From Schmidtea nova (Eukaryota): a stretch of 64,000 bases of DNA. Below the pieces are notes generated by a model, which had not been told where the DNA came from, did not search any database, and was given only the letters and a program-made list of their open reading frames with translations. The DNA is taken from positions 255,874,001-255,938,000 of the forward strand of contig CM097882.1 of the NCBI GenBank assembly GCA_044892505.1, written 5' to 3'. Position 1 is the stretch's first letter. Every line of letters starts with the position of its first letter. Positions 10,307 through 27,783 of the stretch are shown piece after piece. The translations under genes were made by a program, and so were the position numbers.

Positions 10307-13300
10307 TATGATGAGAGCAACCAATCAAACAAATACCCACGAGAAAGAGACTGTACCAGAAATAAATCCAACAAACCCGAATCCAACCAACAACGAAGGC
10401 CGAAAAGAGATAATACAAGAAGATGAAGAAGCAGAAAAAGAAACAGAAAAGGAAGTAGAAAAAGAAGGGAACCAAGAAGAGAAAAGGAAACTCGGGAAAA
10501 GAGGAATGATGGTAATTTTGCCAAACAAGCACGTGTTTCGATTCCAATATAACATAAAAGAAGAAGTAGAAATATTGTTCAATAAAGTGAATGAAATGGC
10601 TCCAGGAGTAACGAAACTGCCCAGAGAAGCATTCCTAAAAATAGAAGGTGCACCAGAAGTAAAATTGAAACTAACGGATACATGGGAAAACCTGGGAGTA
10701 GTAGAGACAAAAAGAAATGTGATGGTAATCAAGGAAATAGAACCAGAAGGAATTCCATCGCCAGTGCGTCACGAAACACGAATCAGTCGAATATTTAAAG
10801 GGAAAATGATACGAAGACGGTTGGGAGAAATAGACGAGTTAGAACGAAAAATGAGAAAGGTCGGAGTAGTAGACGACAAGAGTGAATCAACACAAAAAGC
10901 TATTAAAAGTGAAACAAGACCAACGGAAAATACACCAAGTGAAATCAACCAAATAAAACACATTAACATGTTGAGAGGCCAGGCAAAGAAATTCTCAGAT
11001 GACGAAGAGGATAGTGACGTCAGTAGTCTAGCCGGAGATATGCTAAACGAACCGGAAATTGAAGACAAAAAGATAGAAGTAGTAAAGACACCAGAAACTA
11101 TTCAAGTAAAAGAGGACGAGATCCAGAAATTATTAGATAACGCGCTAGAAGTAATATATAATGAGGAATTCATTGACAAGAAACACTATAGAAAATTCAT
11201 GAGAGCAATATTACAAATGAACTATAAAGAGTGGTTACCAGGCCGAGAAGTAGAAACACTAAGCCAGTACGTAGGAAAATTATTAAAAGAACCACTCCAT
11301 GAATATATAATCCTAATAGAGATAAAAACATGTTTGCCAAGGATTTGGATCAAAACTCCACTCACGGAAGATATTTATCAATGGGTAGAAGATAGATTAG
11401 GGAGTTCATATAAAAACAAATTCCTCTATTCACAGAATGGACTAGTGAAGAAAAGGACGCATTTGATAGAAACAGGCATATGGCCAGGAGAGGTGACAAC
11501 ACTATCGATATGCGATGATAAGAGAGAAGAGAACCTACAAGAAGTAGCAAAGGAAGCAAATATGTGTTTCGAGAAGAAGATAAAACCACGGTTAGAATAT
11601 GAGAAAGGACGAATCTTACGAGGAAATCTAAATTCCATGATAGAACAAATCATCCCACAAATCAAAAAACATAGAAAGGAGTTAATGAGAAGCGAATACG
11701 AAAAGTTGAAACGATGTATCGAATGCATACGTGACACAAGTCACACGAGATGGTCACAGATCTCATACGGAAAAGTAATTGCAAAAATGGGAAAAGCAAT
11801 GTTCAGACAAGGGAAAATAACAGATCTGAAAATTGCAGTAGAGTTACCTAATGAGGATACCAAAGAAATTGAAGTGGTAGCAGATTGTACCATAAAAGAA
11901 TTAGTAAATGTCATCAACGAGACACTATTACAAAGAGAACCAGAAGAAGAATGGGAAGATGACATAATCATGAAATACAACGAACATGTATTATGGGATC
12001 ACGATGAAAGACGGCTATATAAAATTGGTATATGGGATAATCACCAAACCATCCACGTTATCAGAATGGACGATACACCAAGAGAAACTGCTAAGGATGA
12101 GAAAAGAGAACGGGAACGACAAAAAGAAGTTGTGCATAAATTACAACAAATAGTAGACATTTATCGAAATTGGCGGATTTGGCCAGAATGGGAAGATGTA
12201 TTAGAAGAACTCAATCTCAACAGACGATTACGAACACCTGTAGAAAAACAATGGAACGAACGAGGAAAATGTTGGGAACCAAAAGCAGGCGAATACGAAG
12301 AGGAATACGGAATAGGCATAGAAGACGATCACAAACCGGAAACCGGAAGAGTCTGTATGGTAACAAGAAAAGCCATGCCAGCAGATTTAGACGGACCAGA
12401 AACGACAACCATGTGGTTGGAAAGAGAAAAACAAAAAACGGAAGAATTTGTCGAAATATTAAAAACCAATGCGCACGGCAAGAGAAAAGTAGTAAAAGGT
12501 CTCGCAGATTTTTTCGTAGTTAATGGAGAAGACATAACATGCTTGCGTAAAGTAGCAAAAGCAATCGCCGAATACAAAAGAGTTAACGAGTGGTGTCCAG
12601 AACAATTGGATCACGTAATTAAAAAATGGAGAAACCAAGAATTCTCGCAGGAATCGCCACAGAAAGTACACCTAAGAATAGTATATCCGAACCAAGAAAA
12701 GGAAGAGTTTTGGGTAGGGATAGCGGAGAAAGTTCGAGACATTAAAAAGAAATTGAGATATGAACCACCATTCCATTTACAACACCAAGGACGATCATTA
12801 GATAACAGCTTAGAAATTGGAATAACGCCAGCGCAATTAGATATCGCAAATACATTGACAGTAGCAGCAATAGCAGGTCAACCATTGAAATTGAAAGAGG
12901 AAAAGAAACCAAAAGGAAGTATGAGTACGCCGAGCCCAATGAAATCGGTAATGACTCCAGGAACAAGCTCAGAACAAGCTAGAACAACACCAAGAGAGAC
13001 AAGAGAAAGAACACCACCAGAACCATACGATGTAGACGAAATTTTTACAGATAGCGATGATATGTTAGAGGAGTTAATAGAGCTAACAAAAGAGAAAGAT
13101 GATAATATTTTCGAAAGAATTCAAGAATTACCAACAGCAATACCGGTAACCAACACCGAAGATGAAGTCGAACAAGAAATAATCATAGAAGAAGTAAATG
13201 AAATAGCAGAAGAGGAAGCAAGGAGGGCAAATGTAGAAAACGTACAATTCACACAAGAAATGGAAAGATGGTTAGAAGAAAGAGCCAATGAACCAAGAGA

Positions 13301-16300
13301 CGTCACAGAAGAAACTGGACGAGAAACAAGATTAGTAGAAACGGGCACGACAATGGATAAACGACCTAGAGGTAGACCCAAGATGGATCCAGCAAATGTA
13401 GTTATAAAATCAAGAGAGGAAAAAAGACGGGATCAATGGGATTTGTGTCTAAAGAAACTAAATAAAATAGCCGTAACGAAAGAAAAAGAAACAACACAAA
13501 CATACCAAGGCGAGGAATGGATATCAAAGATGTTAATGGAAATACTGGCAATAATCGATCCGGAATTAAAGAAATGGTGGAGAATAAATGAAATAAGCGA
13601 AAGGGCGAAATCACTGCATAGCGCCATCGCACCAATCCTACCAGAACTAATAAAAGAGAAGACAAGGTCAAATCACCTAGATTGGCAAGGAACCACGATG
13701 TTGATAAAGAAGTTAACGGAAGGAGCAGAGACGGATAACAAATATTTAATAGCTATGGCATACACCATCTACAATCTGCTGACACTGAGTAGAGGTCGAC
13801 TGAAACCCACAGCACTTGAAAGACATATAAAGAATACAGCCAAAATTATAGAGAAAGAAATAGAACCGTACATCATCAGTAAAGGAGGATGGGAAACATT
13901 CACAAAAACGAACCAAAAGAAAAACCAAGCCAAAAATATGAAAAAGAAATTCGAAGAGATATTGGGAGAATTGGAAAAGGAAAAGTCGGGAACAGGAAAC
14001 GGGAAATCATCACTAAACCTGAGTTCTATCATTATGATGATGTTAATATGGATGATTAGTACTGACGGAGCAACAGCATTTGAAGTATTCGATTGTGATC
14101 AAATGGCATTAGGTGAGAAATATTCACTACGAGGGACAGAACAATGTAAGGACGCAACCCCAACGGAGCTAAAAACATTAAAAAAGAGACAATTATACCA
14201 CGTATATCAGGAAGCTGAACTGATAAGAACAATGGTCAGAGAATGCAAAGTTTATAAAACCAGATTTGCTTTTTATTGTGGGCACCGCCATTATTCAGCA
14301 ATCGTGATGCCAGGAACGGAAAGAGAATCGGTAATGCTGCAAGGAGAAGACTGTGAAAAATTATTTAAACATGGAGAAGTAGAGACTAGAGATAGAGTAA
14401 AGATAAGAGGAAAAACGGGAGTGATATTGCAACAAACATATTATGTAGCAGGAGCTATTACGGGAGGAGAAGGGTACTGCCAAGGAGCAACATATCCAAT
14501 ATTCGGAGTAGCAGCAACAAACCTAGTGGTAATAGATACGTTTACAGTGGAACTAAAAACGTACGAGGCATTCTTCGATCCAACGACGGGAGAAATGAAA
14601 ACTCTACCTATGTGCAAAATCGAGTCAAACACTTGTCAGACTGGTATGTCAACCCTAACCTACCAGATACGAGGAAAGGAATGTCAACTACAACTGTTAA
14701 AGGAAGCAGAATTCGATGAGATACAAGGGAAAACCTTCCAAGAGGAAGAAGAAGACGAGGCAGCAAGAGGAAAAATACTTCAAGACACAGTACGGGGAGA
14801 GAAAAAGATTGAAACCCGAACACAAGAAAAACAAATTAAAATGAGAAATACACCAACGGTACTAATTACCTCAGATGCAGATATCGGAATGAGGTTTGTA
14901 AAAGGAAAAACAGCCTTGAAATGCGGAGTAGCCATGTTGGAAACCAACTACCCCGGCATTTTTGTATCAAAACAAGAAGTACCTAGTGCGAAACGCAAAG
15001 TACACACGAACGATGTTAAATTACACCTTTACATGAACAATAAAATGGATTTTCTATTCCATAGAGGACAAGCGTCACTACAAAAAGTGTATTACGATTT
15101 AATAAACAACGATTGCATATTAAATAGGGAAATATTAAAGACAAAATTAGCAGTAGCAATCACAAACCCGGATAGTGCAATGCCATTATTACCATTAAGA
15201 GAAGGTCATTTTGGAAGAGTAGTCGGAGAGGTCATGTACGTATACATATGTAAAAAGACAAATGCGAAGGTAGCGACAATGACAAAACTACAACCAGGTC
15301 AGTGTACTAACGAACTAGAAATCGAATATAAAGGGAAAGTAAGATATGTACAACCAGTGACAAGAATCATAAATCCAATAAGCTTCGAACCAAATCCTTT
15401 CAATTGCAGCAACGCATATGGACCACTATACCAAAAACCAGACGGAAATTGGGTTATGTTTCCGTCAAGAACAGAGGTACCAGCACCAAGGGAATTTGAA
15501 TTGATGCAACTATCAAAAGGACGAAAATTTAAAGACGTAGACGTAAGCAATATGGGATTCTATAGCGCAAAGGATTTAGAAGCAGCAAGACAAAACATAC
15601 TATTTCCGGCAAGACGAGAAGCGGTGTTATCCAGTATTGTAACAATAACAGGAGGAACAAATTACCAAGGTGGACCAAATTACGAATTATTATTGTCACC
15701 AGCCCACTTTAAGAAGGCAACGGAAAACATGATGAAAGCGATGTGGGGAAGATTTTTAATATTTGGACAAATGATGGCAGGAATACTTGGTGTTATACTA
15801 ATTATACAAATAATACGGGTAATAATAACGCAAATGTTAGCCTGTTTTGACATCTATAAAAGAGAAAAGAAAGTAAATTGGAAATTGGTGGTAGGATTCT
15901 TACCATTTCTGGCTAAAACAATGGTATTACACGGTCATTCGAAAGATATTCACCGAATAAAGAGACTCCTAAAAATACTGGCAAAAATGAAAGGAACCGA
16001 TGAAGAGGTGGGACGAAAATTTAAAAAGATAATGAATAACGAGCAAGCAAGACAACAACTAAAGAAAGAGAGAAAAGGACTATGGGAAAGAATGAAAGGG
16101 TACAGAACCCAAGACGATTCCAGTGACGACGATGATGATGATAACGAAGGAGGTCAAGTATTTAAAAATCAAGTACCACAGTATGTCGAAAAGAATCCAG
16201 CGGAAATGTGGAAGTGTTACGCACCCCCACCAACTATGTACCAAGAACCAACACCAGGGATGAGACAAAATACAATGCAAATGATGCCGATGACAAACAT

Positions 16301-19300
16301 ATATCCTATGATACCAGAAGACTATAGAACGAGACGGTGCAGAAGCGTAGATCCGCAAGGAGACTCACATACAATTGCAGTAATGTCATCAAACACCGGT
16401 CCAGTATTAACTACAACAATCGAAATTAACGGAAGGGAAATTGAAGCGATGATTGATACAGGAGCAAATATCTCAGCAATAGATATAAAATGGATACCAC
16501 AAGAACAAAGACGGGATATTGAGAGAACCAACGTTCACGTAATAGCATGCAGTAAAGAAGTAGTAGAAGTTTCCGGAAGATGGCGGGTAAAGATAAAACA
16601 TCAAAACACGGAAATCGAAACGTACGTAGCAGTAATACCAGCACTGAGCGTACCATGCATTATAGGTACGGATCTGATGCCAGCATTATTTAAAGAAATA
16701 GTTATTGACCTCGGAACAATGAGATTAAAGGATAGGACAGGACAGATATGCGCAATAGAAGCAAAAGTAACAAGTTCGAAACAAATAATCGTACCAGCAC
16801 GGAGAGAGAAAATATGTTTCGTAAAAATAGATCCTACAATAGAAGGTGACATAATCTTTGAACCCAGTAAAAGATTTGAAAAGAGAAAGTCGTTGCCAAT
16901 GGCAAGGGGATTAGTGAGTGCGAATGACAACGGAGAAATCCCAATAAATGTAGTAAATTTCGATGAAGAGGATAAAATAATTTATGAAAATGAAAGATTA
17001 GGTAAACTAACTCCAATGATAGATATCGAAATACCAATAAAAGAAGGAGTAAAAGAGGAGGAACCCACTTGGAACATTGATAGCCAACTATTAAATGAGG
17101 ACCAAAAGAAACAGCTAGAAAGATTACTGATGGAATATAAAGACATATTCGCAACATCCGATTTAGATTTAGGGACATGCGACGTCACACTACATACGAT
17201 TCCACTAACAGACGAAACGCCGATTGCGTTAAGACCATACAAGTTAGCTGAAGCGCAAAAATCAGTAGCAGAAGCAGAGGTACAGAAAATGCTAGACGCA
17301 GAAGTAATTGAACCAAGCTGCTCACCGTGGCAATTCCCAGTTGTAATGGTGAAAAAGAAAGACGGAACACAACGATTTTGTATTGATTATCGGAGATTAA
17401 ATGCAGTTACAAAAAGGGATACATACCCATTACCAGACATCAACGAGATGTTATTGACATTACAAGGAGCGGCATACTTTACATCATTAGATTTGAAAAG
17501 CGGATACTGGCAAATTAAAATGAAGGAGGAAGACAAAGAGAAAACTGCTTTCACTATCGGAAGAGACTTGTACCAATTTAGGAAAATGCCATTCGGACTA
17601 ACCAATGCGCCAGCATCATTTCAAAGATGTATGAATTTCGTTACCCACGGCATAAAACAATGCATGGTTTACATTGATGACCTACTAATCTACTCAAGCA
17701 CATTTGAACAACACATCCAAGATATCAGAGATGTATTTGTGAGATTGAGACAATGGAAACTTAAGCTCAAACCATCGAAATGCGATTGGGCAAAAGAGAA
17801 AGTGACATTCTTAGGACATATTGTGTCCGCAAAAGGAAAGGAACCAGATCCCAGAAACATTGATAAAGTAAAAGAATGTCCAGTACCAAAGACGATAACG
17901 CAGATCCAAGAATTTCTCGGATTATGCGGTTACTATAGAAAATTCATAAAGGATTACGCAGGAATTGCAAAACCAATCCAGGAGCTAGTAAAGAAAGACG
18001 TATCGTTCATATGGGGAAGCGAACAACAAACAGCCTTCGAAACATTACGAGATAAGTTAATAACTGCACCAATATTGGTTCACCCGGATTTCAAGAAGCC
18101 ATTTTTACTCGCAACCGACGCAAGTGGATATGCAGCAGGAGCAGTGTTAGGACAATATGATGACGAGGGAAAAGAGCGGGTAATCGGATATTATAGCAGA
18201 ACATTCAAGAAACACGAGAAGAATTATTCAGTAACGGAAAGAGAAGCATTGGCGATAATATTAGCAATAAAACACTTTAAATATCTACTATGGGGACACG
18301 TTATATGCATAACCACGGATCATCAACCACTTGTATGGCTAGGACAACACAAGGAAACATCCAGCAGGTTGATGAGATGGGCGATGCAATTACAAGAATA
18401 TTCACCAGATATAAAATTCAAATCAGGAAAAGCGAATGCCAACGCAGATTGTATGTCAAGATTAACGTTTCCAGAACTAACAGACCCAGAAGTGCAAAGA
18501 ATATGCATAGTGATAGCAGAGGACTTGGATTTCAGTGAGTTAAAGAAAGATCAGCAAGAGGATAAAGAACTAAAACCCATCATAGAATTTCTAAGCTCAC
18601 GAAATATGGATGTATTCGAAGACAATGCGGAGTTAAAAGAACACATGAGGAAATACCAACACCGATACACAATAGAAAAAGGATGGTTGTTAATACAAGA
18701 TGGAGAAAAACGATTAATGTGTCTGCCAAGTAATAGACGAAAAGAGATAATAACTCAATACCATGACGGAAAGCTAGGAGGACACATGTCCTCTAAGAAA
18801 ACATTAGATCGTATGAGACAGAAATATTATTGGCCAACAATGGACGAAGACGTAAAGGAATGGATAAAGAACTGTTTAACTTGTGCCACAAGAAAGGATA
18901 GTGGGAAGAAATGGAAAAATCCCTTAAAACCCATGCCAATACCAGCGGAACCAATGACTACCATTGCGATGGATGTAATAGGACCATTGCCAGAAAGTTT
19001 AAACGGGAATCAATATATATTGGTAATAACGGATTATTTGACTAAATTCCCTGAAGCATTTGCGATGCCGGATCAAAAAGCAAAGACCGTAGCAAGAATT
19101 TTAGTAGAGGAAATATGTTGTCGATACGGAACCCCGAAACAAATACTAACAGATCAAGGAACAAATTTTATGAGCGAAATACTAGATGAAGTAACAAATT
19201 ACTTCAGAATAGCTAAATTACGAACGTCACCATATCATCCGCAAACCAATGGACAAACGGAAAGATTTAACGGCACATTGATTCGAATGTTATCCAATTA

Positions 19301-22300
19301 TGTAAGCAAACACCAAACAGATTGGGATGAATACGTAAAGCTATGTCTAATGGCATACAGAATGTCGATACACGCAGCAACAAAATTGAGTCCATTTCAA
19401 TTAATGTATGGAAGGGAATGCAATATGCCAATAGATCTTGAATATCAACCACCTTTGTCTCAATATATGGAGGAAGATGATTACGTCACCAAATTCAAAG
19501 AACGAATGCAAGAGATATGGAAGACAGCTGAACTGAACATAAAGTTTTACCAAGAAAGTTACAAGGACCTACACGATCAAAAGAAAAATGTTAAAACAAA
19601 TGATCTTAAACCAGGAGATTGGGTAATGATAGAAACCCCAGAAATAATACCAGGAACCGTTAAAAAACTACAAAGACCAGGAAAAGGCCCTTACGAAGTT
19701 ATATACAAAAAGGAAAACAATGTGAAGGTAAAACTTGTTAATCGACCATTGATACGACCAATATACGTTAATACATGCAGATGTAAAAAAGTACCAAAGA
19801 CAATAACCACAGCGCCAGAAGAACGAATAATAACCAGATCCCAGACAGCCAGAATGAATATGCTCAGAGCAACCAATGAAAGTACCGAAGCAGAGAACAA
19901 TCAACGAGAAAAAAGAAACAAGGAAATTGTACTAAAAGCCAGAGAAATAATGGGAAAATGGCATGTCAGAGACGATATATTAAGAGATATTCAGTCGATA
20001 ATTAGTGATTACGCAAGGGGACTACCAACAAAACCAGTCATTTCAGAACTACTGGAAAAGATTCCAGAAATACTTTCACTAGAAGACATAGGAGGACAAC
20101 CAGCATTACATAACGCCATAAAATGGGGAGAGGTAGAGAGAGTAAAAGAATTTCTAAAAATCGCTAAGGAAACAAACCAACACCTTGGTTTTGGGAATAA
20201 CGAACAAGAAACACCCTTAATGGTAGCAGCCATCTACAAATCGGATAAAGCAATAATAGACCTTTTGATAAATGCCGATTTCAACTGGACGGAACGCGAT
20301 AGAGAAAACAAAACGGTCTTGAATCACGCAATATGGAGCTCAAATCAGATAATGCTCAAACAAATAATCGAGAAGGCCACTTGGGAAATAGACGAACTGA
20401 TCAAAGGTGATATAATCAAGGAGGCAATAAAAATCGGTAACTGCAAAACAATACGCAAGCTAATAAAATGGAAAAGATCCGAAAATGATACATGGGTATT
20501 AAATATAAACGAAGTATACAGTAAAGGACAAAACGCGTTATTTCAATTCCTATTAAAATTAGTTTGTGATCAGAAAACACTGTTAATATTATTGGACAGA
20601 AGAAAGATCACAATTTCCAAAAACAAAGAGGAGTGTAAATTCGAAAGCGAAAAAGAAGCATTATTCAGGAAAATTAGGGAATGGTGTGCAAAATCGCTAA
20701 CCAAGTCGATAACTTACAAAGATATATCCAATTTTCAAGATAAGTACAAAACGGTGGAGGAAGAGTATGACAAACTAGTAGACATATTAAACCACCCCGA
20801 AAAATGCAAACAATTCCTAGGTCGAAAGGAAAGAGAAAGCAAAAGGAAATTTACACCACTTTTCAGCGCAGAGGTACCATATCAAGAAAGGTTAGATGCG
20901 ATACAGGACAAAGCAAAAGAACTATTACCAGAATTCGAGAATTCTAAACATACACTGGAGATACTCGGATCAATTGTGGAAAAGGTACACGCATATGCGG
21001 AAGGAACTTACAATGAAAACGATATGATGATCATAAAAAGAGAAATGCCAGTGACTTTCTTATTAACAAAGAATGGAGTATTGCCAATACATAGAGCCTT
21101 ACGAGCAGGAAAAGATAGGAGGGTAGTCGAAATTGCACGGTTGATGCAAGATTGCGGAAGTGACATGAACATGAAAGATAAAAAGGGAGATACCCTCATG
21201 ATATTCGCAGCAAGAGCGAACACAAAAACCCGAGTGTTACAGGAACTGTACGAAGCAGGTGCAGGACTCATGGGAAGAACTAACAAAGACAGCTCAATAC
21301 TAGACGTAGCGTTGTTAGCGCACAATTGGGAGGTGATAAATTTCATAAAAACAATCACAAATCAGGAGGAAATAGAATACCTTACAAGGACAGTTAAAAA
21401 AGCTAGCGTACATTCCATGATGCATAACGCTGAACTAACTGAAGCAATACTCAATTGGATGAACCCAAACACCAATGAACCAGCATTCAGGATCAACGAG
21501 TGCATGGAACAAGGCCAAAATTTGTATATAAAGTGTGCATTAATAATAAACAAATGGCCAAAGATAATAGATATCTTCATGAGAAGAAAAGATTTACGAT
21601 TCACAAACAACCCAAAGGAAACAGAACGTACGGACAAATGGAAAGAACTAATGAAAACGTACCTTAATAATTGGATAAAAGCCAAGAAAGAGATTCTAGA
21701 TTGTAAATTAACCGATAAGGAAATACCTAAGCAGGCAGTAACACAAGAATACGAAGCAAGTATACTCACAACCATAACGTATGAAAAAATGATAGAAGCA
21801 GTTAATGTCGAGGACGACATTTTCAACGACCAAAGGGGAGGTGACAATACAGGAAACGACGACGATAGTACTCGAGAAAATCCAGAGGATCATGAGTTAT
21901 CAGATAAAGAGGACAGTGAAGAGAAAGGAAGGGACACAGAGAAAAATGATAAGAACAATGAATTTGGGAAACAAAGAAACAACAACTATAAAAATAAAAA
22001 CGAAGTAAAAAGAACAGGCTACAAACAAACAATAAACCCATTCTTTAAACCAGAACTATTATTACTAACGGTAATCATGACCTTAATTAGTCCAACTCAA
22101 GGAATGATATGTGAAGAAAAAGCGACAATACAAATTGGAAACGCAAAAGGAATCGAACGAGTATGTTGGTCAAAAAAGGACAAAATATCGGGACAAAATA
22201 GTCCAATGGATTGCAGGATCTCAGAATATGAACAAGAAATCATAGAGATCGATGACTTAGAGCTAGATACTTGGTACAGAATGTGCACCGTTCGGAAACC

Positions 22301-23996
22301 AAAGGATCCGAGATCACATAAGACAATTGCATGTGCAAATTACCTAACACCCAAAGTAACCATAACAGTACAGCAGTCATCCAAAGGAGACTATGTCGTA
22401 GGAAAGTGTGGAAGAACAGAGACACAAGGAACAAAAAACAAGAAACCTCAGACAATAGACAGACGAACAACGCCAACTATACAAATTACCATAGACAGGC
22501 CCGAAGTAAGAGTAACCACAAATGAAACTGAAAGAGTGACCTACCAAGCAGAATTACTATGTTTAGCACTCATATTAACAATGTTAAAACGGTTAGAAGA
22601 AGGGATAGACATTGACACAATGGCAGTAACAGAGATGAACGACACCCAAAACACCAACCCAAAGTGTTGGGCCAGAAGCAACGAAGAAATTGGCGTAAGC
22701 GAAATAAAGACGAGTCGGAAAAGGAAAACAAATAAAGTAACCAAGATATCAGAAGTAAAAGCAGACAGGACGTATGAACTATGTTTACTAGAAAAAGAAA
22801 GACACAAGAAAGGAACGACAATTTGTAAAACATTTCAACCTGGGGAAACAATAAAGTTCATACGACGAGGAAGAAGAAATAAACGCACCAAACGGAGAAC
22901 AACTATAATGTTAGAGTTAACCGGAATAGAACCGGACGTCAAAGGCGTATGCTGGAAGAAGCAGGAAAAGAAAACAAACCAGAATACACCGCCGCAATGT
23001 CGAACAAACAGAGGAACAACCACAATACAGATAGAAGGGTTAGAAAGTAATCAAACGTACGAAATATGCCTGATCAGGAAGAGCGACAAAATAACAGTAA
23101 ATGAACTGGAATGCAAAATATATAAAACACCCACCAGAACAAGAATTGGAAAGACAACGCGAAAAAGCAGAAGACAACGGAACAAAGGAAAAACGAGGTA
23201 TACCACTACTTTTAAACCTAATGGACAACAGAAAAACCAAGAAATACAAATAAAAACCGAAAAGAATACTACAGCAACTCTTATACTATGGAGAATAGAC
23301 AATAAAACGTTAGAAATATGTTGGGTAATAGTTCAGAAACAAAGGGAAAGACAGCCACGAGACTGTGGAAACGTGAAAGGAAAAGAGGAAATAAGTATCA
23401 GAAATCTGAAATTCAATAGCGAATACGAGATATGTGCGGTAGAAAAGACGGACATATTAGGAAATCAGCAGGAAAGATGCGAAACGTACTACACACCGGT
23501 AAACTCAACGTCCAAAGGGAAAGTGAGAAAACTCGAATTTAAAGAATTAAGTCAGACAACGAAACAAATGGACGCGGAACAAGTAGTAATAGACCCTTAC
23601 GCAAGATGGACGCCGGAAGAAGTAATTAAAGAAGTTAAAAGAAAACAACAAGAACGAGAACAACTACTAAATAAACTAAAGGGACAATACGGACCAATGA
23701 TTAACCAGAGTGAAATTACGAAGATGGACGTAAACAAACAAGTTAGAGAACTAATTGGTCTGGGAATACTAGCAGCAACTATTCCAGTAATAACAGTATT
23801 ATTAATAATATGGATATATGATGTATTCAACAAGAAACCAATAACACATTGGCCAGATATAAAGATTATGAACTACAGTATAGAATTACCGGAAGAAGTA
23901 CAGAAAGAATTTCAAAGGAGGACGAAAGGCAAAGAATTTTGGAGACAAATAGAAGATGAAGAGCGATACGAAGGAAAGACAGTGATGGTGATATAG
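10227..23996 (+). CDS. pol: 4589-aa polyprotein: Ubl domains, AT-hook, Bcl-2-like, Env, PR, dUTPase-like spacer, RT, RNase H, IN, ankyrin repeats, FN3 membrane protein
   Basis: Uninterrupted ORF with PR IDTGA (16455), RT LKSGYWQI and YIDD (17670), RH DASG, IN HHCC plus D-D-E (MDVIG, TDQGTNF, PQTNGQTER) and GPY. Extra domains are listed separately. Confidence 0.97.
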   Translation: MLRNGQEYKEKRNKKQQERERQPLRINMMRATNQTNTHEKETVPEINPTNPNPTNNEGRKEIIQEDEEAEKETEKEVEKEGNQEEKRKLGKRGMMVILPNKHVFRFQYNIKEEVEILFNKVNEMAPGVTKLPREAFLKIEGAPEVKLKLTDTWENLGVVETKRNVMVIKEIEPEGIPSPVRHETRISRIFKGKMIRRRLGEIDELERKMRKVGVVDDKSESTQKAIKSETRPTENTPSEINQIKHINMLRGQAKKFSDDEEDSDVSSLAGDMLNEPEIEDKKIEVVKTPETIQVKEDEIQKLLDNALEVIYNEEFIDKKHYRKFMRAILQMNYKEWLPGREVETLSQYVGKLLKEPLHEYIILIEIKTCLPRIWIKTPLTEDIYQWVEDRLGSSYKNKFLYSQNGLVKKRTHLIETGIWPGEVTTLSICDDKREENLQEVAKEANMCFEKKIKPRLEYEKGRILRGNLNSMIEQIIPQIKKHRKELMRSEYEKLKRCIECIRDTSHTRWSQISYGKVIAKMGKAMFRQGKITDLKIAVELPNEDTKEIEVVADCTIKELVNVINETLLQREPEEEWEDDIIMKYNEHVLWDHDERRLYKIGIWDNHQTIHVIRMDDTPRETAKDEKRERERQKEVVHKLQQIVDIYRNWRIWPEWEDVLEELNLNRRLRTPVEKQWNERGKCWEPKAGEYEEEYGIGIEDDHKPETGRVCMVTRKAMPADLDGPETTTMWLEREKQKTEEFVEILKTNAHGKRKVVKGLADFFVVNGEDITCLRKVAKAIAEYKRVNEWCPEQLDHVIKKWRNQEFSQESPQKVHLRIVYPNQEKEEFWVGIAEKVRDIKKKLRYEPPFHLQHQGRSLDNSLEIGITPAQLDIANTLTVAAIAGQPLKLKEEKKPKGSMSTPSPMKSVMTPGTSSEQARTTPRETRERTPPEPYDVDEIFTDSDDMLEELIELTKEKDDNIFERIQELPTAIPVTNTEDEVEQEIIIEEVNEIAEEEARRANVENVQFTQEMERWLEERANEPRDVTEETGRETRLVETGTTMDKRPRGRPKMDPANVVIKSREEKRRDQWDLCLKKLNKIAVTKEKETTQTYQGEEWISKMLMEILAIIDPELKKWWRINEISERAKSLHSAIAPILPELIKEKTRSNHLDWQGTTMLIKKLTEGAETDNKYLIAMAYTIYNLLTLSRGRLKPTALERHIKNTAKIIEKEIEPYIISKGGWETFTKTNQKKNQAKNMKKKFEEILGELEKEKSGTGNGKSSLNLSSIIMMMLIWMISTDGATAFEVFDCDQMALGEKYSLRGTEQCKDATPTELKTLKKRQLYHVYQEAELIRTMVRECKVYKTRFAFYCGHRHYSAIVMPGTERESVMLQGEDCEKLFKHGEVETRDRVKIRGKTGVILQQTYYVAGAITGGEGYCQGATYPIFGVAATNLVVIDTFTVELKTYEAFFDPTTGEMKTLPMCKIESNTCQTGMSTLTYQIRGKECQLQLLKEAEFDEIQGKTFQEEEEDEAARGKILQDTVRGEKKIETRTQEKQIKMRNTPTVLITSDADIGMRFVKGKTALKCGVAMLETNYPGIFVSKQEVPSAKRKVHTNDVKLHLYMNNKMDFLFHRGQASLQKVYYDLINNDCILNREILKTKLAVAITNPDSAMPLLPLREGHFGRVVGEVMYVYICKKTNAKVATMTKLQPGQCTNELEIEYKGKVRYVQPVTRIINPISFEPNPFNCSNAYGPLYQKPDGNWVMFPSRTEVPAPREFELMQLSKGRKFKDVDVSNMGFYSAKDLEAARQNILFPARREAVLSSIVTITGGTNYQGGPNYELLLSPAHFKKATENMMKAMWGRFLIFGQMMAGILGVILIIQIIRVIITQMLACFDIYKREKKVNWKLVVGFLPFLAKTMVLHGHSKDIHRIKRLLKILAKMKGTDEEVGRKFKKIMNNEQARQQLKKERKGLWERMKGYRTQDDSSDDDDDDNEGGQVFKNQVPQYVEKNPAEMWKCYAPPPTMYQEPTPGMRQNTMQMMPMTNIYPMIPEDYRTRRCRSVDPQGDSHTIAVMSSNTGPVLTTTIEINGREIEAMIDTGANISAIDIKWIPQEQRRDIERTNVHVIACSKEVVEVSGRWRVKIKHQNTEIETYVAVIPALSVPCIIGTDLMPALFKEIVIDLGTMRLKDRTGQICAIEAKVTSSKQIIVPARREKICFVKIDPTIEGDIIFEPSKRFEKRKSLPMARGLVSANDNGEIPINVVNFDEEDKIIYENERLGKLTPMIDIEIPIKEGVKEEEPTWNIDSQLLNEDQKKQLERLLMEYKDIFATSDLDLGTCDVTLHTIPLTDETPIALRPYKLAEAQKSVAEAEVQKMLDAEVIEPSCSPWQFPVVMVKKKDGTQRFCIDYRRLNAVTKRDTYPLPDINEMLLTLQGAAYFTSLDLKSGYWQIKMKEEDKEKTAFTIGRDLYQFRKMPFGLTNAPASFQRCMNFVTHGIKQCMVYIDDLLIYSSTFEQHIQDIRDVFVRLRQWKLKLKPSKCDWAKEKVTFLGHIVSAKGKEPDPRNIDKVKECPVPKTITQIQEFLGLCGYYRKFIKDYAGIAKPIQELVKKDVSFIWGSEQQTAFETLRDKLITAPILVHPDFKKPFLLATDASGYAAGAVLGQYDDEGKERVIGYYSRTFKKHEKNYSVTEREALAIILAIKHFKYLLWGHVICITTDHQPLVWLGQHKETSSRLMRWAMQLQEYSPDIKFKSGKANANADCMSRLTFPELTDPEVQRICIVIAEDLDFSELKKDQQEDKELKPIIEFLSSRNMDVFEDNAELKEHMRKYQHRYTIEKGWLLIQDGEKRLMCLPSNRRKEIITQYHDGKLGGHMSSKKTLDRMRQKYYWPTMDEDVKEWIKNCLTCATRKDSGKKWKNPLKPMPIPAEPMTTIAMDVIGPLPESLNGNQYILVITDYLTKFPEAFAMPDQKAKTVARILVEEICCRYGTPKQILTDQGTNFMSEILDEVTNYFRIAKLRTSPYHPQTNGQTERFNGTLIRMLSNYVSKHQTDWDEYVKLCLMAYRMSIHAATKLSPFQLMYGRECNMPIDLEYQPPLSQYMEEDDYVTKFKERMQEIWKTAELNIKFYQESYKDLHDQKKNVKTNDLKPGDWVMIETPEIIPGTVKKLQRPGKGPYEVIYKKENNVKVKLVNRPLIRPIYVNTCRCKKVPKTITTAPEERIITRSQTARMNMLRATNESTEAENNQREKRNKEIVLKAREIMGKWHVRDDILRDIQSIISDYARGLPTKPVISELLEKIPEILSLEDIGGQPALHNAIKWGEVERVKEFLKIAKETNQHLGFGNNEQETPLMVAAIYKSDKAIIDLLINADFNWTERDRENKTVLNHAIWSSNQIMLKQIIEKATWEIDELIKGDIIKEAIKIGNCKTIRKLIKWKRSENDTWVLNINEVYSKGQNALFQFLLKLVCDQKTLLILLDRRKITISKNKEECKFESEKEALFRKIREWCAKSLTKSITYKDISNFQDKYKTVEEEYDKLVDILNHPEKCKQFLGRKERESKRKFTPLFSAEVPYQERLDAIQDKAKELLPEFENSKHTLEILGSIVEKVHAYAEGTYNENDMMIIKREMPVTFLLTKNGVLPIHRALRAGKDRRVVEIARLMQDCGSDMNMKDKKGDTLMIFAARANTKTRVLQELYEAGAGLMGRTNKDSSILDVALLAHNWEVINFIKTITNQEEIEYLTRTVKKASVHSMMHNAELTEAILNWMNPNTNEPAFRINECMEQGQNLYIKCALIINKWPKIIDIFMRRKDLRFTNNPKETERTDKWKELMKTYLNNWIKAKKEILDCKLTDKEIPKQAVTQEYEASILTTITYEKMIEAVNVEDDIFNDQRGGDNTGNDDDSTRENPEDHELSDKEDSEEKGRDTEKNDKNNEFGKQRNNNYKNKNEVKRTGYKQTINPFFKPELLLLTVIMTLISPTQGMICEEKATIQIGNAKGIERVCWSKKDKISGQNSPMDCRISEYEQEIIEIDDLELDTWYRMCTVRKPKDPRSHKTIACANYLTPKVTITVQQSSKGDYVVGKCGRTETQGTKNKKPQTIDRRTTPTIQITIDRPEVRVTTNETERVTYQAELLCLALILTMLKRLEEGIDIDTMAVTEMNDTQNTNPKCWARSNEEIGVSEIKTSRKRKTNKVTKISEVKADRTYELCLLEKERHKKGTTICKTFQPGETIKFIRRGRRNKRTKRRTTIMLELTGIEPDVKGVCWKKQEKKTNQNTPPQCRTNRGTTTIQIEGLESNQTYEICLIRKSDKITVNELECKIYKTPTRTRIGKTTRKSRRQRNKGKTRYTTTFKPNGQQKNQEIQIKTEKNTTATLILWRIDNKTLEICWVIVQKQRERQPRDCGNVKGKEEISIRNLKFNSEYEICAVEKTDILGNQQERCETYYTPVNSTSKGKVRKLEFKELSQTTKQMDAEQVVIDPYARWTPEEVIKEVKRKQQEREQLLNKLKGQYGPMINQSEITKMDVNKQVRELIGLGILAATIPVITVLLIIWIYDVFNKKPITHWPDIKIMNYSIELPEEVQKEFQRRTKGKEFWRQIEDEERYEGKTVMVI
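11823..12065 (+). other. Ubiquitin-like domain in the polyprotein (clearest of up to four; others near 10503-10740, 11300-11510, 12663-12870)
   Basis: LKIAVELPNEDTKEIEVVADCTIKELVNVI...IIMKYNEHVL..D.RRLYKIGI..QTIHVI follows the ubiquitin beta-grasp pattern. Confidence 0.65.
13420..13910 (+). other. Bcl-2-like helical domain in the polyprotein
   Basis: BH2-type motif EPYIISKGGWETF (13869-13901) ending an all-helical region of about 150 aa. BH1 NWGR is degenerate. Confidence 0.65.
14010..15930 (+). other. env: Envelope glycoprotein, chuvirus-like / class III fusion type, embedded in the polyprotein
   Basis: Internal signal peptide SIIMMMLIWMISTDGATA|FEVFDC, then YSL..EQC, CKV...FYCG and a Cys-rich ectodomain. 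C-terminal WGRFLIFGQMMAGILGVILIIQIIRVII TM. Confidence 0.8.
20090..21360 (+). other. Two ankyrin-repeat clusters after integrase (~20090-20500 and ~21060-21360)
   Basis: GQPALHNAIKWG, ETPLMVAA, KTVLNHAI, GVLPIHRAL, GDTLMIFAA, SSILDVAL. Confidence 0.85.
22040..23996 (+). other. Type I membrane protein module: signal peptide, four FN3-like repeats, TM, short tail
   Basis: LLLLTVIMTLISPTQG signal. Repeats IDDLELDTWYRMC, VKADRTYELCL, IEGLESNQTYEICL, IRNLKFNSEYEICAV. TM LIGLGILAATIPVITVLLIIWIY. Confidence 0.7.
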
Positions 23997-24478: not shown

Positions 24479-24568
24479 ATAAATAAAGCGAAAAATTGTA
24501 AATATGTAAAACAAAAACAAGAAAAATCAAAAAATAGATAACAAATCAAGTGTATATATCATTGTAGA

Positions 24569-25951
24569 ATGAATACAGAAGGAAAAGCCGAAGAGCGGAT
24601 AATCGAAATTTTGAGAGCCGAGAACAGGAAATGGAGTCTGAGACTCACTTGTGTAAATTGTAAAAACATAATATTGAAACCAAGACAAACCCTATGCGGA
24701 TGCAGAGTATGTACCAAATGCATACACGAGTTAAGTATGAAAAGACCACCAGAATGTCCAGAATGCAAAGAAGGTCAAATAAAATTCGAAGAAACCGGAC
24801 CAGATAGAGCAACTCAGAGAGAAATCATGAACACGAAAACCGAATGTATAAATCAACCATGTATATGGCAAGGACAAATACGCGATCTCGAGAACCATCT
24901 GGAGAACTGCGAAGAGAAGAGAACTGAATGTAACAAATGCCAACAAAAAATAACTATAAAGAATAAAGAGCAGCACAAAGATGAATGTAAAGAAGAGGAA
25001 AGTCTATGCGAATATTGTGGAACTCGAGAAACGAGGAGAAAGATCGAAGAAGAACACCTGAATATAAAAGAGGAGAAAGTATGTAGACAATATGTAGGAA
25101 TATGTTCAAACGAATGCGAGATAACGGTAGAAGTAAAATTACAAGAACATTGGAAAGTGTGCACGGAGAAACCAAGGGAATGTCCTTATAACAAACAGGG
25201 ATGTATGGAGAAAAGAACGCAAAAAACCATGAAACAACATCTGGAGGAAGCATTACTAAAGCATGCGGAAATGACAAACGAAGCAACAAAAGAAACCGAA
25301 CAAACAATCAAAAAATTAGAAAGAGAAATAGAGTCACACAAGATAATGGTAAACCTACTGTTGGAAACCAGAGAGCAATTCGAACTAACACGAGAAAAGA
25401 TGGAGGAAAAGATAAAAGCTATCGAAGAACTGGCTAAAGGAATGAAAATCCAGTACAACAAACTCACCCAGGATACCGAGGAAAAGTTACCAATCGCACC
25501 ATATGTGTGGAAAGTGACAGATTTTAGAAACAAATTAACAGAGGCCAGAAATATGACGAAAACAGCAGTAATAAGCCCACCATTTTATTTATGGAGAAAC
25601 GGAGCTAAAGTGAGATTGAAGCTATACCCAAATGGAGACGGAAGAGGACGAGGAACACATGTGTCAATATTTTTCTCGCTATGTAAAGGAGAATACGACG
25701 ACCTAGTAGAATGGCCCTTGAAAGTAGGAGTCATCATTAGAATCAGAAGTGTAACAAAACCAGTAGAAAAATTCTTTGAGACAGAGAAACATGCGAGTAC
25801 GAGCGAGAAACCAACCACAGAATGTGGATTAGCAGCGGGAGAACCAATGTTTATAACGAAAGAAAGCCTATGGGAACGATTATATGCAGACACCCTATAC
25901 ATAGAAATGGAAAGGAATGAGAAAGCGGATAGAAAAGAATGGTTGACGTAA
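24569..25951 (+). CDS. TRAF-family protein (RING, TRAF zinc fingers, coiled coil, MATH domain), 460 aa
   Basis: RING CVNC...PRQTLCGCRVCTKC...CPEC; zinc fingers; MATH YVWKVTDF...ISPPFY...KLYPNGDGRGRGTHVSIFF...GEYDDLVEWP. Confidence 0.93.
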   Translation: MNTEGKAEERIIEILRAENRKWSLRLTCVNCKNIILKPRQTLCGCRVCTKCIHELSMKRPPECPECKEGQIKFEETGPDRATQREIMNTKTECINQPCIWQGQIRDLENHLENCEEKRTECNKCQQKITIKNKEQHKDECKEEESLCEYCGTRETRRKIEEEHLNIKEEKVCRQYVGICSNECEITVEVKLQEHWKVCTEKPRECPYNKQGCMEKRTQKTMKQHLEEALLKHAEMTNEATKETEQTIKKLEREIESHKIMVNLLLETREQFELTREKMEEKIKAIEELAKGMKIQYNKLTQDTEEKLPIAPYVWKVTDFRNKLTEARNMTKTAVISPPFYLWRNGAKVRLKLYPNGDGRGRGTHVSIFFSLCKGEYDDLVEWPLKVGVIIRIRSVTKPVEKFFETEKHASTSEKPTTECGLAAGEPMFITKESLWERLYADTLYIEMERNEKADRKEWLT

Positions 25952-26066
25952 CAAGAGAAGTGATCGTGTAAATAATATGTACAGTTAAATACCCAAAAAT
26001 TATTATATAAACAAAAAATAACTGATATATAAACCGATTAAAAAATTTTTTTTTGAAATTATAGCA

Positions 26067-27128
26067 ATGGGAAATATCGAAGTATGCTTACAGGAAATTA
26101 CGATGCATCAAGCAGAAGCGATTAGCGATCATCTAGAACAGATTGAAATATGGGTCAATGCATATTATGGAAAGCAAGAGGAGATAGAGAGACAAGCCGA
26201 ATTATTAAAAGAAGCGGAAAGATCAAGTCAAAGAAGTCGAGAAAAAATAGAAGAAGTATACAAAATGCTACAACAACAAAAGGAATATTACCAGAGAATG
26301 ATGAAAGAGCGACGAGAGGAAAGAGACAGACAGCAGATGGAAGCTGAACACAAGATGTATTCGATTACAGAACAAGCAAGATACTGGAAGAAAGAAGCGA
26401 AAGAATCTTACGAAAAAGCTAGAGAAATAATAGAAAGGACAGCTTATAGTGATGATTGGAAGTTATATAAAGAGATCGATGAACTAAAAGACGAGTTAGA
26501 GCAAAAAATCAACCAGGAAGTGTTAAATAAAAGATGGAATACAAAAAGACAGCAATTTATCCGCGAACAAGCAAAGAAAATTAAAGGACTAACCTATCAA
26601 GTTCAAAGAATGGGAGAAGAACTAGCTAATCAAGAACAACTGAAAACTATGCTCACCGGAATATGGAATCAGAAAGAAGAAGAGATGAAGAGAGATATAA
26701 ATGGTTATCAAGGGGTGATTACTCAAAAGAAAATAGAGCTAAAAAGAACCAGAGAAAGGTTAAAGGAAGCGAAGCAAAGTTATGAGGAAAATTTAACGAA
26801 TTTGATGAAAGAAAACGAAGAATTGAAACAGAAACGAGTAACAGTACTAGCAATACCCAAAGAAACAAGTACAACGGCAGCCGTAACAAAAATGATGAAA
26901 GAAGACGAACAAAAGACAAAAGTAATCGAATTAGAGAAGCAAATAGAAACATTAACAGAACAAGCAAATTACCTAGAATATTTGCTGGACGAGGAGATCC
27001 AGATATCTCACATGTATCGAGATGAAGTCGAAATGTGGAGGAGCAGGGTTGTTTGGATACCACTCCCCACGAACCAGGTAGAACCTCAGGACGAAGGTTT
27101 CTACGAACCAAACGAGACGATTGTGTAA
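26067..27128 (+). CDS. Accessory long coiled-coil protein (353 aa)
   Basis: E/K/Q-rich helical ORF with an upstream TAG acceptor. Confidence 0.8.
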   Translation: MGNIEVCLQEITMHQAEAISDHLEQIEIWVNAYYGKQEEIERQAELLKEAERSSQRSREKIEEVYKMLQQQKEYYQRMMKERREERDRQQMEAEHKMYSITEQARYWKKEAKESYEKAREIIERTAYSDDWKLYKEIDELKDELEQKINQEVLNKRWNTKRQQFIREQAKKIKGLTYQVQRMGEELANQEQLKTMLTGIWNQKEEEMKRDINGYQGVITQKKIELKRTRERLKEAKQSYEENLTNLMKENEELKQKRVTVLAIPKETSTTAAVTKMMKEDEQKTKVIELEKQIETLTEQANYLEYLLDEEIQISHMYRDEVEMWRSRVVWIPLPTNQVEPQDEGFYEPNETIV

Positions 27129-27210
27129 ATAAAGCGGAAAATATATTTTTGTAAATAATTGTATGAAATGTAGTATCAAATTGTATTGACCTACCTGTAA
27201 AGAAAACAGT

Positions 27211-27783
27211 ATGAAAAAGCTCAGAATACCGATATTCCTATACCTAATAACAATCACCCTACAAAGAGAAGATCTTCAACTCACAGAGAAGGAGCTACGA
27301 GCCCTACCCGAGAAAACCTATCAAGAACTAGATAAACTAATCAGCGAAGCAACACAAGAAATCACCCAACTTCAACAGATAACATCAGACAACCCAAACG
27401 ATGAAAAATTTCAACAGGTCCTATATGAACATCGAATCAAATTGAAAACAATCAGAAAAACCCTAAAGGAAGGTCGAGAACCCATAAAAAGCTTAGCCCA
27501 AGCAGAGATAGAATATCAAGAAAAATGGATCATCGCAATTATAATAATCCTTGCACTCAGCGTGACCATTATCGCGATCACAATCCTCATAACATCATAC
27601 CGAGTGAAGATCTTAAAACAAAAACATGTCATCCTGAATCGAACAACAATACAAGACATCAGAACCCAAAAGCGAATGAGAAAACACCTAAACCAAATCC
27701 AAAGCCACTACGAACTACGAACAATCAGCGAAAGAACCCCAATCCAATCCAATACCAATCATGAAATCAAAGAGCTTGTGTAA
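27211..27783 (+). CDS. Accessory membrane protein (190 aa; hydrophobic N-terminus, helical hairpin, TM)
   Basis: N-terminal LRIPIFLYLITITL; TM WIIAIIIILALSVTIIAITILITSY followed by a basic tail. Confidence 0.75.
   Translation: MKKLRIPIFLYLITITLQREDLQLTEKELRALPEKTYQELDKLISEATQEITQLQQITSDNPNDEKFQQVLYEHRIKLKTIRKTLKEGREPIKSLAQAEIEYQEKWIIAIIIILALSVTIIAITILITSYRVKILKQKHVILNRTTIQDIRTQKRMRKHLNQIQSHYELRTISERTPIQSNTNHEIKELV

Follow-up and report, generated by a model that had tools for sequence, protein, structure and literature searches.

A predicted Bcl-2-like domain ahead of the internal Env signal in a Burro-like giant retroelement of Schmidtea nova

Organisation of the element

The window, by which we mean the whole stretch of 64,000 nucleotides that was analysed, carries a Gypsy LTR retroelement of 28.2 kb (Table 1). 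Given the complete identity (100%) of its two LTRs, their TG and CA ends and the 4-bp target duplication GCTG that flanks the element at 3001-3004 and 31233-31236, the insertion is young. Gag occupies a frame that overlaps a second frame of 4,596 aa, in which cargo, the Bcl-2-like domain, Env, the Pol enzymes and ankyrin repeats are joined, and which also holds a second signal and transmembrane segment after these repeats. The fusion of the domain into a retroelement polyprotein, as claimed by a first-pass annotation made from the letters alone, is borne out, and its motif lies in the same frame as Env, protease, reverse transcriptase, RNase H and integrase. Other copies have an unbroken frame of 5,140 aa and therefore the window's copy has one frame break after Gag, which is either a mutation or an assembly error. 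An accessory frame near the 5' LTR ends in a RING finger of the kind found at the end of IAP proteins; Pfam found no BIR in this frame.

Table 1. Features of the element, with positions in the window
Feature	Position	Strand	Basis or remark
5' LTR	3005..6249	+	3,245 bp, TG...CA; 100% identity to 3' LTR
Accessory frame with C3HC4 RING finger at its end	6575..7039	+	Pfam PF13920, E 2.3e-11
Gag, three CCHC knuckles	8573..10306	+	out of frame with the remaining polyprotein in the window's copy
4,596-aa frame	10206..23996	+	cargo, Bcl-2-like domain, Env, PR, RT, RNase H, IN, ankyrin repeats
Probable ubiquitin-like domain (weak)	11829..12038	+	Pfam PF18036, E 0.11, under cut-off
Extra N-terminal helix preceding the core	13413..13490	+	model helix 3-28; outside all structural matches
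Bcl-2-fold core, predicted helices 1-8	13497..13925	+	AlphaFold, Foldseek, VIA
BH1 position, TDNK instead of NWGR	13731..13742	+	alignment of 34 element domains
BH2 motif YIISKGGWETF	13869..13901	+	in frame 10206-23996
Linker, 37 aa, net positive	13902..14012	+	between BH2 motif and signal
Internal Env signal sequence	14013..14078	+	hydropathy and -3/-1 residues, 7/7 families; predicted cut 14078/14079
Env ectodomain and transmembrane segment (15771-15827)	14079..15827	+	viral fusion glycoprotein; Pfam PF24664, E 1.2e-71; hydropathy
Protease, reverse transcriptase, RNase H, integrase	16413..19241	+	Pfam
Ankyrin repeats, best stretch of three	20106..20375	+	Pfam PF12796, E 1.1e-12
Accessory TRAF frame: TRAF zinc fingers, MATH domain	24542..25951	+	Pfam PF22486, E 2.1e-21; PF02176
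3' LTR	27988..31232	+	3,245 bp, TG...CA

Copies and sister families

A search of the species' own genome gave 1,108 candidates, 150 of which were listed. Among these 150 matches, with identity classes counted by hand, 81 have an identity of at least 94%, two fall at 87-93% and 67 at 83-86%; 24 belong to frames with a length of exactly 5,140 aa, and four carry a stop within the domain. A genome search with the Pfam Bcl-2 profile found host genes and two more element families above the cut-off, and three further families were reached by hopping from one of the Pfam-found families and by searching with the Env family. Counting the window's family and its 84% sister, seven element families were seen. 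The order of Bcl-2 domain, linker, signal and Env is kept in all seven, whose lengths differ greatly, and the domains of sister families share only about 20% identity with that of the window.

Sequence homology and predicted fold

Taken alone, the window's domain matches Pfam Bcl-2 (PF00452) at E 0.1 and 13.6 bits, against a curated cut-off of 31.4. Single-sequence searches of PDB sequences and of 1.84 billion representatives gave no match, and the domain was likewise unmatched in a protein database (near and longer lengths), with an alignment query and in the Atlas; such blanks are evidence of neither absence nor novelty. Copies of sister families B and C exceed the curated PF00452 cut-off, 29 of 34 element domains match the Pfam profile at E<=1 (best 2.6e-8), the window's family aligns with the sister families with an hhalign probability of 93.6 (E 2.1e-7), and a joint profile of the 34 domains matches Bcl-xL at E 1.6e-8. 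Because two of the families had been picked with a Bcl-2 profile, the comparison was repeated with 10 rows from families picked without one; this profile was weak, and four designed repeat proteins ranked ahead of Bax, which it reached at E 0.0044.

An AlphaFold model built from a 34-row alignment of natural element copies has nine helices and a mean pLDDT of 73.6, with the lowest confidence at residues 82-89, in the region of the helix 3-4 groove. All 40 Foldseek matches listed from the PDB belong to the Bcl-2 family, led by Bfl-1 (E 8.8e-4), and in a viral library the viral Bcl-2 and E1B-19K proteins rank at the top. Against 48,161 chains, VIA likewise placed Bfl-1 first (Z 13.5, 136 residues aligned, rmsd 2.9), with Bcl-2 folds in the top 34 rows and the first unrelated row at Z 5.8. 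Helical bundles can attain a Z near 13 through arrangement alone, and therefore we place weight on the uniformity of the VIA list and on the gap beneath it. The corresponding 10-row model, from families chosen without a Bcl-2 profile, was poor (pLDDT 58.5); its 38 listed Foldseek matches were nonetheless all of the Bcl-2 family, albeit weak (best E 0.013). With the AlphaFold and Foldseek check run in this way, the fold suggested by the first-pass annotation is upheld, and the models make it nearly certain that the window's domain adopts a Bcl-2 fold.

The predicted fold most resembles cellular pro-survival proteins, namely Bfl-1/A1, Bcl-xL, Trichoplax trBcl-2L2 and Hydra Bcl-2-4, with Z of 12.3 (Bcl-xL) to 13.5, 132-137 aligned residues and a shared BH2. 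In contrast to these, the window's domain has 7-15% identity, lacks NWGR, carries an extra N-terminal helix and lies inside a polyprotein, where its predicted anchor comes from an internal Env signal. It is also similar to the viral homologues A179L, KSHV Bcl-2, BHRF1, GIV66 and CNP058 (Z 10.8-11.9), as a divergent predicted fold in a selfish genome. The viral homologues, however, are encoded by separate genes of large DNA viruses and their BH3 binding has been measured, whereas the domain described here belongs to a retroelement and is known from its sequence and model.

Motifs and boundaries of the domain

The helical domain ends in the predicted BH2-like YIISKGGWETF, as had been noted, and the glycine and tryptophan of BH2 are invariant in all 34 aligned rows. 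A BH2-like pattern, written after the motif was seen, occurs once in the 4,596-aa frame and in 2 of 2000 shuffles. The noted loss of NWGR from BH1 extends to every element domain aligned (0/34): the position reads TDNK in the window and NRDR in sister family C, against NWGR in Bcl-xL, and the BH1 arginine is replaced by lysine in the window's family and by valine in two others. One family C copy has NW here, which was rejected as an ancestral trace, being confined to a single row of 34.

The span originally given to the domain, 13420-13910, stands in part. The Bcl-2 core corresponds to model residues 31-173, at about 13497-13925, whereas the preceding helix lies outside every structural match. 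This extra helix keeps an L-x-x-I/M motif in 34/34 rows; by eye it had looked BH3-like, a reading left unsupported by a profile search that found no BH3 peptide among eight PDB rows at E<=10. Just upstream of the domain, at 13362-13382, stands RPRGRPK, with RGRGRPRK at the equivalent place in family B, a sequence which we take to resemble an AT-hook.

Purifying selection on the domain

The window's copy was compared with four copies of the nearest sister family by simple counting, with synonymous sites partly saturated (dS 1.0-2.7), and on this basis dN/dS is 0.044-0.083 for the Bcl-2-like domain, 0.08-0.10 for the linker, 0.03-0.04 for the Env signal (defined in three of the four comparisons) and 0.07-0.08 for the start of Env. 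Judged by these sequence comparisons, the domain is maintained as a protein under purifying selection of a strength equal to that on Env.

The internal Env signal as a putative anchor

An Env signal had been placed about 35 aa after BH2, and indeed 37 residues separate the final phenylalanine of GGWETF from the hydrophobic stretch, and 59 separate it from the predicted start of mature Env. Signal peptidase favours small residues at positions -3 and -1 of its cut. In all seven families a hydrophobic stretch behind the domain ends in such residues at -3 and -1, ahead of a conserved Env start. The stretch begins 35-50 residues past the BH2 tryptophan in the element families, and 13-25 residues past it in three host genes with a same-exon tail. 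In two families the Env Pfam profile starts inside the stretch, which is therefore more probably a signal belonging to Env than a Bcl-2 tail that was captured.

The hydrophobic stretch behind the Bcl-2-like domain thus doubles as the Env signal, and a signal-peptidase-type site in 7/7 families makes it likely that the signal remains on the domain after the cut as its membrane anchor. We consider it probable, from these sequence features, that the domain is membrane-anchored at least for a time.

The release of such a product from the polyprotein may involve the element's own protease. A recurring motif that may mark its sites, defined post hoc, occurs six times in the main frame, where shuffles give 0.7, and in several cases stands at Pol borders. 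The nearest candidate upstream of the Bcl-2-like domain lies at 12348; none was found by this pattern in family D or in the window's linker.

Derivatives that lack Env and Pol (L141:5271-7133 and L147-L166) fuse the first Env codons in frame with the polyprotein's last membrane segment; Gag, the signal and both the ubiquitin-like and the Bcl-2 domain are retained. By hand count, their junction is spanned by about 80 among the 150 matches listed, and at 14 of 20 loci read there is no stop in the 240 residues upstream of it. These derivatives were rejected as support for the anchor: the 27 pairs (of 36) for which dN/dS is defined all exceed 1, with 0-2 synonymous changes, and purifying selection was not seen among the young copies compared.

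Origin of the domain

The position common to the seven families suggests a single capture. As had been called for, a phylogeny with host Bcl-2 genes was run, on the shared core of seven element and nine host rows, from which five further host rows that were partial or carried a stop had been omitted. The elements come together in 58% of bootstrap trees, with a p-AU of 0.49, so that this tree does not resolve their grouping. A first tree had united them at 99/99, a result that was overturned as its alignment had included the element-only helix. The host group represented by L036 scores best by profile against the element domains; in the core tree, pairings of the elements with this group, with L031 or with a Bok-like pair are neither favoured nor rejected, and no donor stands out. 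Among the host Bcl-2-like genes, L036, L038, L042, L050, L056 and L059 are without NWGR and cluster together, and L038 reads through to its tail with no intron.

Relation to Burro elements

The Bcl-2 domain and its place before Env were already known, having been in print since 2018-2019, and are not a discovery of this study. Section 7 of PMC6431247, with reference to Grohme 2018, describes a BCL2-like motif in Burro elements, preceded by a ubiquitin-like motif, and an Env in frame between BCL2 and protease, so that the novelty implied by the first-pass annotation is not supported. The same text regards an apoptotic role of the motif as worthy of experimental confirmation, and describes a Burro-like element of Dugesia tigrina with an ORF1 of 5,140 aa and MATH/TRAF in a separate frame. 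The present analysis contributes the support from predicted structures, the signs of purifying selection, the occurrence in seven families and an anchor model that can be put to the test. In the literature searched, as far as it was available, the Burro Bcl-2 domain has neither a predicted fold nor a model of its anchoring nor a test of its function, and further papers or supplements may contain one; the accessible text of PMC11410931 and PMC8532177 mentions Burro and not Bcl.

The element resembles the giant planarian Gypsy elements Burro and GYPSM1 in its size class, in the order Gag, ubiquitin-like domain, BCL2, Env, PR, RT, RNase H and IN, and in its ankyrin repeats, mononegavirus-like Env and MATH/TRAF in a separate frame. 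The weak ubiquitin-like match likewise stands in the order given in the part of PMC6431247 seen. As a Gypsy LTR element in the range of ~25-30 kb or more, with many copies, ankyrin and MATH/TRAF cargo, a giant ORF1 (broken after Gag in the window's copy), an in-frame Env between Gag and Pol, and BCL2 before Env, it is Burro-like. The likeness to the Dugesia tigrina element extends to a frame of exactly the same length in the 24 copies mentioned above. However, that element is described with two CCHC knuckles and with its TRAF frame upstream, against three knuckles and a downstream TRAF frame here, and the window's element is therefore filed as Burro-like with no claim of identity, the two having been compared by description only.

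The same arrangement of Env between Gag and Pol, with an ectodomain flanked by a signal or by two membrane segments, is reported for flatworm GAG-ENV-POL errantiviruses of the HSV/gB type in the consulted portions of PMC13524379, whose text and seven supplements, to the extent available, contain no mention (0 matches) of a Bcl-2 domain. Burro1 is reported, as relayed at second hand in part of PMC13465017, to protect stem cells from apoptosis through a RING-BIR (IAP) region. In the window, Pfam gave no BIR match in the nine frames scanned, and the part of PMC6431247 seen is silent on a BIR in the 5,140-aa element.

A possible role in cell death and its alternatives

Given the predicted fold, the selection on it and the neighbouring signal, we narrowly favour a reading in which a Burro-like polyprotein carries a Bcl-2 domain that is likely anchored by the Env signal and likely inhibits the death of the element's host cell. 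During synthesis of the polyprotein, the internal signal would insert into the ER membrane, and signal peptidase would cut at 14078/14079 and release Env into the lumen. The upstream product would keep the hydrophobic stretch and have its Bcl-2 domain in the cytosol, in the orientation given by a cellular Bcl-2 tail anchor. The element's protease would cut upstream, perhaps near the candidate site at 12348, to leave an anchored product of roughly 575 aa, and the domain would then bind pro-death relatives of Bcl-2 by way of a remodelled groove, in the manner of divergent viral Bcl-2 proteins.

That the domain has an anti-death function seems to us somewhat more probable than not, because the closest folds are those of cellular pro-survival proteins, BH2 is kept, and viral Bcl-2 proteins, according to excerpts of PMC7022251, have little sequence in common with their mammalian counterparts, rely mostly on the canonical groove, and in many cases have a TM region that is needed for pro-survival activity. 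Partners would exist, as the host genome has an NWGR-bearing Bcl-2 gene (L031) and a Bok-like gene that matches chicken BOK at E 2.2e-17. Against an anti-death function weigh the loss of BH1, the uncertain groove and the TRAF, RING and ankyrin cargo. In addition, the action of Bcl-2 is central at mitochondria (PMC7022251, in the part seen), and an ER anchor would hold the domain away from them. A more specific proposal, which we put forward tentatively as it is rather doubtful, is that the Env signal becomes a tail anchor once signal peptidase has cut, so that each Env is made with one ER-bound Bcl-2, which could block an ER death route, for example one run by a Bok-like protein, with no need of an NWGR groove.

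Among other roles, the domain might be a non-apoptotic scaffold like vaccinia A52, A46 and B14, in which a Bcl-2 fold blocks innate signalling of the TRAF/NF-kB type. We regard this as unlikely, though the strongest of the alternatives. In its favour, BH1 is lost in 34/34 rows, and the element's cargo includes TRAF/MATH, RING and ankyrin parts, along with a weak match to a ubiquitin-like domain. The first-pass annotation had pointed to such poxviral TLR blockers, and the model does match them, but at VIA Z of 7.9 for A52, 7.1 for A46, 5.3 for B14 and 8.4 for N1, below the 12-13.5 of cellular pro-survival proteins (13.5 for Bfl-1, 12.3 for Bcl-xL). Moreover, BH2 is kept, and NF-kB inhibition by Bcl-2 folds is described as confined to poxviruses in the excerpts of PMC7022251. 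A fold score fixes function in neither direction.

Somewhat less probable still is that the domain has given up any role in regulating death and serves as a membrane-proximal part in assembly, which holds the Gag precursor at the ER and brings the Env signal into place. Its fixed place directly before that signal in 7/7 families of very different length would suit such a part, as would the low identity of about 20% between sister families and the window. On the other hand, BH2 and a complete eight-helix fold are more than a spacer needs, and GAG-ENV-POL elements are present in nematodes and bryozoans as well, while a Bcl domain goes unmentioned in the text and seven supplements of PMC13524379 as far as seen.

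It is improbable that an anti-apoptotic domain becomes soluble or is re-targeted, with the remnant of the signal removed by a membrane protease, as has precedent in hepatitis C core, or with the linker cut by the element's own protease. As in cleavable signals, the hydrophobic stretches are short and polar residues come after them; however, the linker contains no instance of the protease motif defined post hoc, and it is conserved (dN/dS 0.08-0.10). Finally, a decayed passenger or a chance resemblance, to which the blank or marginal single-sequence searches might have pointed, is largely refuted by the profile, fold and selection results and is very improbable.

Should the favoured anti-death reading hold and the domain protect cells, the benefit to planarian stem cells reported for Burro1 (second-hand, in part of PMC13465017) would gain a second mechanism, and a retroelement would be using a strategy familiar from large DNA viruses. 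If the block of an ER death route were true as well, it would represent a second anti-death arm beside the Burro1 IAP, common to at least seven families.

Other regions of the element

Two frames of 176 and 198 aa (4291-4821 and 5126-5722) lie inside the LTR, are repeated in the 3' LTR and match no Pfam family. No Pfam family is matched either by the accessory frames at 26022-27128 and 27190-27783, of which one is charged and coiled-coil-like and one has a single membrane segment. At 22032-23810, the second signal-like stretch and the second membrane segment of the 4,596-aa frame enclose about 550 residues of repeated beta-rich units with a weak Pfam match to fibronectin type III (E 0.087), and this region is probably a second surface protein.
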